Below are positions 44,880 through 46,660 of a stretch of 64,000 nt of DNA, in pieces; within the stretch, counting starts at the first letter, position 1, and the number at the start of each line of letters is the position of its first letter. The notes beneath the pieces are model-generated. The model saw only the letters and a list, made by a program, of their open reading frames with translations. It searched no databases and was not told the DNA's origin. Source of the stretch: Escherichia phage vB_EcoM_LMP25; sequence record MK482688.1. One strand, 5' to 3'. The position numbers were made by a program, and so were the translations under genes.

Positions 44880-45250
44880 GCAGCATAAACCAACGGGTAC
44901 TCACCAGCATCACTTAAGAGTCTTCTAAGAGGGTTTTTAAGTGATGTGTAGCTCGGTCAGGTATGGTGCGGTGGTGTAAGGTGGTGTCAGGTGTAGTATG
45001 GTGCGGTGATGTGAGGTATGGGTAGTTAGTCTCAGCTACATTAAAATGAGACTTACCTTTTTAAAAGGTCTTTAAACAGGGTCTTTTAATAAGGTAGTGT
45101 CAGGTTAGGTTAGGTGCGTTTTGGTAGGGTAGGGTAAGGTTCGGTAAGGTATGGGTGGATGGTAGTAGCCACGTTAAAAATCTACCAAGTTTCTAAAGAG
45201 TCTTCTGTTGAGGGTTCTTTACAAACAACTTAACAATCAACTAAAGTGTG
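44880..45250. repeat. C-depleted GT-rich modular repeat region A
   Basis: Leader motifs AAGAGTCTTCTAAGAGGGTTTTT and AAAGGTCTTTAAACAGGGTCTTTT followed by GGT-rich tracts and short stem-loops; no ORF. Confidence 0.55.
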
Positions 45251-45262
45251 GAGCTAAATGCT

Positions 45263-45850
45263 ATGAAACTGCTAAATATCAAAATCACTGGTACTCGTCC
45301 TTTCTTGAGCCATAACGATACGCTGTCAGACCCATTAAACCCCCTGACAAAATATCACAAGTCTCTGTCCAGTAAACGTAAAAAGACTGACGAAGACTAT
45401 GCGCTCTTAGCAGAAAGCCAACTGGTAACTTCTTGCTACTACGATGAGCAGCTAGGTTTTGTTATGAACGGTGAGATGATTGAGGCTTGTATCAAGTCTG
45501 GTGCAAAACTCAATAAACTTGGTAAGGTAATTGACCGAGCCATTATGCTGACAGATGTAGTCTTCCCAATGACTATCAAGAACTGTCCAGCAAACCCACA
45601 AGAACTTGCTAAGAATCCAGACTTTATCTATGCTAAGTCTGTTAAGATTGGTACAGCACGAGTTATGAGCTACCGTCCAATCTTCCGTGACTGGTCTGTA
45701 GAGTTCGGTTTGATGTTCGATGAAGAGCAAATCACCAAAGAAGAACTCTTGATGGTTCTGGAAAATGCTGGTAACCTTTGTGGTGTAGGTGATTGGCGTC
45801 CACGCTTTGGTCGTTTTTCTGTAGAAGTTATTTCAGAAGGTAACGTTTAA
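45263..45850 (+). CDS. hypothetical protein
   Basis: ATG at 45263 with GGAG 9 nt upstream (track start 45248 is GTG). Confidence 0.5.
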
Positions 45851-45852
45851 TT

Positions 45853-46293
45853 ATGAATACAAAAGCATTAGCAGCAAAGTTTAGTTACGGTGACACTGTA
45901 TCACATTCTGAGATGGATACCTTCTTAGGTATTGTGAAGCCAACTTATCAAGGTGACATTGTTAAGTACGAAGATGAAATGAAGGCTTATGCACTTACAC
46001 GACTAAACCGACTTGAGAAGTTTATTGAAAAGCTTCTTAAAGAAGAGAAGATTTATCTGGTTGCTTCAATGGGTGTTGGTTATCGTGTTGTTGAACCTAA
46101 GCATCAAGCAACTATTGCAAAACGTAAAATGTCTGGTAAGATTGGTCGAGCTTTAAAGCAAGCTACTCAAGCGATTGAGAATGTGAACACTATGGCACTT
46201 AGTCACCAAGAACGTTCACGACTGATTGAACAGCAAAATCACTTAGCTGCTATGAAAGCTAATATTAACAAGCAACGCAGAAAACCTTTCTAA
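45853..46293 (+). CDS. hypothetical protein
   Basis: 146 aa, tightly coupled to upstream gene. Confidence 0.5.
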   Translation: MNTKALAAKFSYGDTVSHSEMDTFLGIVKPTYQGDIVKYEDEMKAYALTRLNRLEKFIEKLLKEEKIYLVASMGVGYRVVEPKHQATIAKRKMSGKIGRALKQATQAIENVNTMALSHQERSRLIEQQNHLAAMKANINKQRRKPF

Positions 46294-46303
46294 GTTGACT
46301 AGG

Positions 46304-46326
46304 TAGCCTCTTCGGAGGCTCCTTTT
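46304..46326 (+). terminator. rho-independent terminator
   Basis: GTAGCCTC-TTCG-GAGGCTCC followed by TTTTT. Confidence 0.6.
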
Positions 46327-46660
46327 TAAAAGGTCTTTAAACAGGGTCTTTTAACAAGGCTTAGCTTGGTTAGGTATGGTAAGGTGGTGTTTGGTGTTGT
46401 AAGGTATGGGTAGTTAATCGGAGCTACATAAAAATTCGATTACATCACTTAAGAGTCTTTTAAGAGGGTTTTTAAGTGAGGTGTGGCACAGTAATGTTAG
46501 GTAGGGTCAGGTCAGGTCAGGTGAGGTAATGTATGGAAGGATGGCAGTAGCCTTATAAAAAATCTGCCAAATAAGCTATAAAATCTGTTGACAAGTCAGG
46601 TGTTATAGCTTATTTTTATACTCAATGTAATACAAAATTTAATATAACTTTGAGGTCATT
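46327..46660. repeat. C-depleted GT-rich modular repeat region B
   Basis: Same leader motifs and stem-loop tails as region A but in swapped order; TTGACA-like promoter near 46580. Confidence 0.55.

Follow-up and report, generated by a model that had tools for sequence, protein, structure and literature searches.

A 64,000-nucleotide (nt) stretch of the genome of Escherichia phage vB_EcoM_LMP25 (LMP25; sequence record MK482688.1), hereafter called the window, was analyzed, and its positions 44850-46616 were found to hold what is very probably (probability about 0.93) a type II Viral Interference Programmable Repeat (VIPR) system of the SUSP1 clade, orthologous to the VIPR locus of Escherichia phage SUSP1. 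The window is a Felixounavirus genome, and the locus consists of a pair of genes, vipr and vap, with two guide RNA (vrRNA) units on either side (Table 1). The locus is real and correctly placed, and it is of a kind already explained by two preprints of 2026. For LMP25, the identification is carried by orthology, the RAMP fold of the effector, the pentamer code of the guides, the covariation of their pseudoknots and the matches to their targets.

VIPR was described with the locus of SUSP1 (Ounavirinae) as the model, in which vrRNAs lie on both sides of the genes for Vipr, a small RAMP protein, and Vap, its accessory protein. Each vrRNA has 9-16 repeats of YNNGG and ends in an invariable pseudoknotted 3′ tail of ~40 nt (bioRxiv 10.64898/2026.04.26.720920). 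The NN dinucleotides pair with double-stranded DNA, one base being skipped between pairs, and transcription is repressed; an E. coli satellite phage contains the natural targets of the SUSP1 clade, and reprogramming of the NN positions was demonstrated for SUSP1 (10.64898/2026.04.26.720920). The structures contain one Vipr protomer per pentamer in a right-handed helical filament capped by the 3′ pseudoknot, with a gapped RNA-DNA hybrid and the non-target strand wrapped as a triplex (10.64898/2026.04.26.720927). The SUSP1 vrRNAs are ~100 nt long, co-purify with Vipr and repress transcription of the target (both preprints).

The 2-kb region around the locus is 100% identical to that of Escherichia phages vB_EcoM_LMP34 and LMP33 and 88-95% identical to that of about 110 further Felix O1-like phages (Ounavirinae). 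The Vipr of LMP25 shares 97.9% identity with SUSP1 Vipr over 195 amino acids (aa), and thus passes the >90% clade threshold of the preprint; it is a small single-RRM RAMP protein of about 20 kDa with a G-loop and a thumb, and it has a Cas7-like fold. A word-index homologue search for Vap returned near-identical proteins only, and the alignment was built from an exhaustive search. No Pfam family was found for either cassette protein, PHROGs returned 'unknown function' only, and the whole window gave no Rfam family at gathering thresholds, with nothing beyond chance-level matches (E ≥ 0.8) in 44800-46700. The repeat finder detected no CRISPR (clustered regularly interspaced short palindromic repeats) array of identical repeats and unique spacers, and the cassette consists of two genes only.

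Four copies of a 125-155 nt unit were identified at 44903-45060, 45051-45195, 46316-46446 and 46438-46575, two of them upstream and two downstream of the open reading frames (ORFs) 45263-45850 and 45853-46293. A profile of the units recovers the four copies at E values of 1e-32 to 1e-38, in agreement with the repeat finder, and a search of the 64 kb with this profile found no further copies beyond a partial fifth hairpin at 45189-45226. The order within a unit is constant, a hairpin of 16-19 bp being followed by 10-16 GGY/NN pentamers and a 32-nt 3′ pseudoknot, while the units differ in which hairpin flavour (a or b) is paired with which tail flavour (A1, A2, B1 or B2). A preliminary description of this DNA, made from the letters alone, had proposed two GT-rich repeat regions around a two-gene cassette, built from a leader, a GGT-rich tract and a short stem-loop; the regions resolve into the four units, 2 + 2, and all three modules are present. 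It had also taken the modules to be shuffled in order, which they are not, since only the flavours are mixed. The GGTCTTT words that it noted as tandem half-sites in the leader do occur, but they make up the arms of a single long hairpin rich in G.U pairs. What it missed is that the unit is a guide RNA with a targeting code in its pentamers, and that the two genes encode a RAMP effector and an accessory protein.

Table 1. Features of the VIPR locus of LMP25 (positions in the window) and best-matching sites of its four guides (positions in satellite copies L151, L152 and L157).
Feature	Position	Strand	Description
Promoter P1	44850..44877	+	TTGACA, 16 nt, TATACT; near-consensus sigma-70, 11/12 consensus matches
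Hairpin type a, 5′ of vrRNA1	44907..44947	+	19 bp, 3-nt loop, many G.U; -20 kcal/mol, z -5.4
vrRNA1 guide tract	44940..45021	+	16 pentamers + closing GG; first two pentamers in hairpin 3′ arm
vrRNA1 tail, type A1	45022..45053	+	GTAG/CTAC plus AGTCTCA/TGAGACT; T run after
Hairpin type b, 5′ of vrRNA2	45053..45097	+	-15 kcal/mol, z -3.8; covariation
vrRNA2 guide tract	45093..45154	+	12 pentamers + closing GG
vrRNA2 tail, type B1	45155..45186	+	GTGG/CCAC plus GGTAG/CTACC
Hairpin type c (third hairpin), vrRNA2-vipr interval	45189..45226	+	-13.6 kcal/mol, z -3.3; the partial fifth unit
vipr	45263..45850	+	195-aa minimal RAMP protein, guide-coating effector
vap	45853..46293	+	vap1-type accessory protein, 146 aa; 99.3% identical to SUSP1 gene downstream of vipr
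Intrinsic terminator after vap	46305..46330	+	AGCCTC-TTCG-GAGGCT + T run; overlaps 5′ arm of vrRNA3 hairpin
Hairpin type b, 5′ of vrRNA3	46321..46359	+	folding, covariation
vrRNA3 guide tract	46358..46409	+	10 pentamers + closing GG
vrRNA3 tail, type A2	46410..46441	+	GTAG/CTAC plus AATCGGA/TTCGATT, one G.U pair
Hairpin type a, 5′ of vrRNA4	46441..46483	+	-14.8 kcal/mol, z -4.2
vrRNA4 guide tract	46475..46536	+	12 pentamers + closing GG
vrRNA4 tail, type B2	46537..46568	+	AAGG/CCTT plus GGCAG/CTGCC; always final tail of locus
AT-rich hairpin + T run closing array	46569..46616	+	inverted repeat; overlaps P2 (TTGACA, 17 nt, TATTTT) of next gene
vrRNA1 target	L152 4884-4931		satellite tape-measure gene; 29/32 NN, 0.91
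vrRNA2 target	L157 5322-5357		satellite tape-measure gene; 22/24 NN, 0.92
vrRNA3 target	L152 2256-2285		between satellite baseplate and tape-measure genes; 18/20 NN, 0.90
vrRNA4 target	L151 11780-11815		107-aa satellite gene; 23/24 NN, 0.96

For comparison, 29 loci were collected from GenBank and IMG/VR, and 75 distinct units from them were aligned. The hairpins and pseudoknots of these units are nearly invariant, and the sequence of the tract is hypervariable. Within the pentamer, the first base is G in 81% of cases, the second is G in 99% and the third is T or C in 100%, with positions 4 and 5 near random, and the period of five is strict, as all length differences among the 75 units are multiples of 5. 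A tract with GGY fixed and NN free is unlike a neutral microsatellite.

The 32-nt tails were found to form H-type pseudoknots of two interleaved stems with an A-rich third loop. Over 14 distinct tails, one of them from the satellite, compensatory changes were observed in 9 of the 11 tail pairs, and stem 1 pairs in 100% of the cells. Pairing holds in 91.6% of the tail cells, compared with 28-42% when the partner column is slid, and the covariation score is 0.61, compared with 0.24 in shuffles, which never reached the observed value, and ≤0.19 with slid partners. The G.U pairs, as in AATCGGA/TTCGATT, place the structure on the + strand RNA. The structured RNA that the preliminary description had suspected is thus supported by nine covarying pairs and by the wobbles, and the covariation that it wished to see checked persists with more homologues; its variation between GTGG..CCAC and AAGG..CCTT was correctly seen and is simply stem 1 of the pseudoknot. 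B1 is the vipr-adjacent tail in the tabulated architectures, and in phage ASO1B the site equivalent to the vrRNA1 tail carries a terminator annotation.

The targets of the guides were searched with the GGY positions turned into wildcards, as in the preprint, and 68 guides were scanned on seven copies of an E. coli satellite, to which a single weak match had led in a BLAST search of 5,426 complete E. coli genomes with a guide region. This satellite of ~10.5 kb (L151 5476-16032; further copies L152-L157) encodes a large serine recombinase, baseplate and tape-measure proteins, an HNH endonuclease, small hypothetical proteins and a small recombinase, and it carries one vrRNA with its own terminator. 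Satellite-related sequence was detected in 532 of the 5,426 genomes, with chromosomal sites near tonB-yciI, DUF72-yecN, mdtG and rutG, and in some copies the tape-measure gene is interrupted by IS2/IS3. Strains 02E060 and GPEC60-33-648 are among its carriers.

With a 1-nt skip, 42 of the 68 guides match the satellite at ≥80% of their NN positions and 15 at ≥90%, whereas the ≥80% level was reached by two guides with a 0-nt skip, two with a 2-nt skip and five with a 3-nt skip, and by two shuffled guides with the 1-nt skip; no control guide reached 90%. All 42 hits fall within the satellite, though host flanks made up >40% of the scanned sequence, and the skip falls on the third codon position in 23 of the 29 coding hits. 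Each of the four LMP25 guides has such a site (Table 1), at a score reached by none of 300 shuffled versions of that guide, and the three mismatches of vrRNA1 lie in the two hairpin-arm pentamers and the last pentamer. The best matches of the guides within the 64-kb window itself (0.67-0.80) equal the shuffled-guide background, giving no sign of a self-target. As all four guides match the satellite, the locus is best read as a weapon of the phage against its own parasite.

Promoter P1 is conserved in Felix O1, UAB_Phi87 and SUSP1; it would drive the upstream guide array and probably vipr and vap as well. On the model taken over from SUSP1, P1 would transcribe two vrRNAs and then vipr and vap, with two further vrRNAs lying beyond the vap terminator. 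Each pentamer would be bound by one protomer of the Cas7-like Vipr, with GGY buried and NN exposed, and the resulting helical filament would read double-stranded DNA with one-base skips between NN pairs and block transcription at that site. The four guides would be directed at the satellite phage of ~10.5 kb, which roughly one E. coli genome in ten carries as an integrated element.

The hairpins that precede the guides fold with z-scores of -3.8 to -5.4 in three of the four copies, and the type a hairpin shows compensatory changes in 6 of 18 pairs over 24 distinct sequences. Some relatives (L003, L008 and L010) tolerate an insertion of 22 nt in the hairpin loop. By our parsing, SUSP1 vrRNA1 has 13 pentamers, the first two within the 3′ arm of the hairpin, while the SUSP1 cryo-EM complex contains 12 protomers and the vrRNAs measure ~100 nt rather than ~135 nt (10.64898/2026.04.26.720920, 10.64898/2026.04.26.720927). 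The difference between 13 parsed pentamers and 12 protomers, together with the ~100-nt RNAs, suggests that the hairpin is cut off from the guide. The hairpins before the guides and before vipr may therefore be a processing signal recognised by a double-strand RNase of the host, for instance RNase III. In other VIPR types, hammerhead ribozymes lie between the guides (10.64898/2026.04.26.720920), and the main text of both preprints mentions no hairpin, RNase or maturation in this context. The hairpins between guides, the intact guides in relatives lacking vipr and a satellite guide that matches a host repeat (both described below) go without mention in the main text of either preprint.

The number of units varies from 1 to 5 among the 29 loci, the cassette is present in about half of the relatives, and Felix O1 and UAB_Phi87 have the flanking units fused into one or two, while the hairpin and tail flavours recombine. 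The recombination-prone module that the preliminary description had offered as one possibility fits as a side effect, and one may ask whether the units are mainly recombination substrates that move the two-gene cassette, their RNA being without a function. An analogy is offered by the promoter-stem-loop (PeSL) cassettes of T4-type phages, which are recombination substrates. However, neutral substrates would not hold GGY at 99-100% with NN randomised, nor would they keep a covarying pseudoknot, and the NN code matches the satellite at 90-96% under one skip rule. We consider this explanation very unlikely; recombination is a consequence of the repeats, a side effect and not their purpose. It is less probable still that the tract is a sponge or attenuator RNA whose GGU triplets are bound by a ring-shaped or multimeric TRAP-like protein and which titrates a host or phage factor, with no DNA guiding, even though triplets with 2-nt spacers, repeated 10-16 times between structured ends, do resemble a TRAP site. 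The spacers match satellite DNA far above chance, and with the 1-nt skip only; the adjacent protein has a Cas7-like RAMP fold and not a TRAP-like one; a helical filament on DNA is what the published structures contain; and for SUSP1 the sponge is refuted by the reprogramming of NN.

The repeats have also been annotated as direct repeats, 'DR_4', in the GenBank records of wV8 (part of them) and KhF3, with a 'possible binding site of StbAB' suggested in the record of KhF3. Together with the strong promoter before a G-rich non-template strand and the replication genes around it, these direct repeats could point to an element acting as DNA, namely iterons or a partition centromere, a transcription-primed R-loop origin, or a packaging or terminal-repeat signal. 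The G.U wobbles of the hairpin and pseudoknot nevertheless suit one RNA strand only, no ParA/ParM-like or StbA/B-like gene was found, the cassette genes belong to no Pfam family, and Felix O1 replicates with a single unit, which together leave such an element as improbable as the sponge. The terminal repeat of the genus lies near wV8 gp55, far away from the locus, and a genome end or packaging site was discarded on the same ground, the 608-bp terminal repeat of UAB_Phi87 adjoining the homologue of wV8 gp55 elsewhere in the genome. The StbAB partition site was set aside as an unsupported annotation of the KhF3 record. A primase-site array, Chi-like protection, a two-tetrad G-quadruplex, an antisense Rho-loading site and an R-loop origin were dropped as well, given that the NN code matches the satellite and the neighbouring gene encodes a RAMP protein.

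Several points weigh against the assignment to VIPR. The DNA-binding fold expected of Vap was not confirmed, as the AlphaFold2 model, at a mean predicted local distance difference test score (pLDDT) of 96.4, matched generic helical folds only. Among the seven satellite copies, a perfect target was found for none of the guides, the best being 23/24 and 29/32 NN, and the 10-pentamer guide, at 0.90, has a modest margin over the shuffled maximum of 0.85. The role of the hairpins in processing is inferred, and for the hairpin of the third unit (U3), where it and the vap terminator overlap, the folding z-score is -1.2, no better than that of shuffled sequence. The support from LMP25 itself is at sequence level, while RNA expression, the Vipr-vrRNA complex, the filament with its triplex and the repression come from the SUSP1 experiments. 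At that level, all predictions of the VIPR model that were tested hold for this phage, the fold of Vap excepted.

The distribution of the locus was analyzed among the relatives. In the majority of E. coli phages, the cassette is surrounded by 2+2, 2+3 or 3+2 units. Felix O1 has one unit (L004 1524-1660) and UAB_Phi87 two (L005 1524-1788; L158/L159), both without the cassette, and no ORF matching the Vipr profile was found in the complete 87.6-kb genome of UAB_Phi87 even at E ≤ 10. In the vipr-less relatives examined, the promoter and the hairpin persist, as do an intact GGY/NN tract and the pseudoknot. A total of 230 records carry a unit, compared with 117 Ounavirinae with vipr in the phage collection, whose 117 Vipr proteins are ≥92% identical to that of LMP25. 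Judged from record counts, vipr and vap appear to be missing from a large fraction of Felixounavirus genomes; units without vipr occur in about 58 of the 75 records of Salmonella phages and 38 of the 114 of Escherichia phages, the deficit being strongest for Salmonella (75 records with the unit vs 17 with vipr). In pentamer profile, the guides of vipr-less phages do not differ from the others, and 6 of 12 match the satellite at ≥0.8, with vrRNA1 of UAB_Phi87 reaching 23/24 NN (0.96). These orphan guides may reflect a recent loss of the cassette through recombination between flanking units, the use of Vipr in trans or a decoy role. It is a tentative idea, and in our view rather doubtful, that they are functional, either borrowing Vipr from a co-infecting phage or helper or soaking up and misdirecting it as an 'anti-VIPR' layer, with the hairpins as sites of processing by host RNase.

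Of the seven satellite copies, four carry one guide each with a Felixounavirus-type tail, and vipr is absent from all seven. One of these satellite guides (L153 11008-11072, L154 10898-10962), with the NN code AG CC GA AA CG AG GC TC GG AA.., matches, with the 1-nt skip, the host repetitive extragenic palindromic (REP) repeat, or bacterial interspersed mosaic element (BIME), and not phage or other satellite sequence, at 20/20 NN at one site and 23/26 at another (L157 14174-14202, L154 15484-15522). Every E. coli genome contains the matched REP repeat at least 15-47 times.

Scanning IMG/VR for the pattern (GGTNN)5GGT returned at least 120 loci, and among the 120 matches listed, which were picked by DNA pattern alone, an ORF matching the Vipr profile lies beside the array in 30 contigs. 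Many unrelated viral contigs (within L030-L149; for example L051, L053, L061, L062, L065, L074, L117, L123 and L125) carry imperfect GGY/NN arrays, often in tandem and adjacent to genes, with other linkers replacing the hairpin and pseudoknot of Felixounavirus, L065 having at least 13 units joined by AAGGAATGGTTTAATGAATTTAATTT; arrays with such linkers presumably belong to other VIPR types. A short, near-identical element (..GGATACaCA GGTTAGGTTAGGTAAGGTTAGGTTAGGTAAGGATA) was detected in at least 10 viral contigs (L033, L034, L039, L050, L056, L093, L107, L113, L116 and L120), and its low spacer diversity means that it is possibly not a guide. Record GU169904.1, labelled Staphylococcus phage SA1, encodes, at 91679-92263, a Vipr 99.5% identical to that of LMP25, along with repeat units, and this identity suggests that Felixounavirus sequence was mixed in or that the record is mislabelled.

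The locus is flanked by a DNA ligase gene on one side and a conserved 127-aa gene on the other, within a block of + strand genes. The GC skew is positive solely in window positions 38000-50000, which correspond to the 12-kb + strand gene block, and negative on either side; its sign tracks gene orientation, and the VIPR locus lies mid-block. No link was found between the locus and the helix-turn-helix protein encoded at 47251-47550.

VIPR is a newly described way of RNA-guided DNA reading, and it is common in Felix O1-like phages, a group in wide use for the typing and biocontrol of Salmonella and E. coli. Since the guides can be read from sequence, the satellite variants that a given phage can silence may be predicted, which bears on phage-satellite ecology and on the choice of therapeutic phages.

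The locus shares with that of SUSP1 the gene pair, the slot between DNA ligase and gp93-like genes, the promoter, the hairpins, the guide architecture, the tail pseudoknots and the target family in the satellite. They differ in that SUSP1, a Suspvirus, has 1+3 guides (as published) and no A2 tail, whereas the Felixounavirus LMP25 has 2+2 guides and an A2 tail, and the NN codes differ, so that different satellite sites are targeted. With class 1 CRISPR-Cas systems, in which Cas7, Csm3 or Cmr4 assemble on the CRISPR RNA, VIPR has in common a RAMP oligomer along the guide, a fixed number of nucleotides per protomer, periodic gaps in pairing and a guide made of a variable part and a constant handle, and the preprint authors propose VIPR as a forerunner of CRISPR. 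It lacks, however, the repeat-spacer array, Cas1/Cas2, Cas5, Cas6 and the large subunit, reads gapped dinucleotides (2 of every 5 RNA nt and 2 of every 3 DNA nt) without need of a protospacer-adjacent motif, is encoded by a phage and represses instead of cutting. The type III toxin-antitoxin system ToxIN has a promoter and tandem pseudoknotted RNA repeats of about 36 nt directly upstream of the gene for the endoribonuclease ToxN, and so resembles the locus in its promoter and tandem pseudoknotted RNA upstream of a partner gene; the units described here are 125-155 nt long, the partner is a RAMP protein and the RNA carries a DNA-targeting code. In the Bacillus trp leader, GAG/UAG triplets with 2-nt spacers are repeated about 11 times and bound by one subunit each of TRAP, a closed ring that acts on RNA structure. 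The VIPR guides are alike in having conserved triplets with 2-nt spacers and one protein subunit per repeat, but the TRAP spacers hold no information, whereas those of the VIPR guides are themselves the message, and what the complex reads is DNA.

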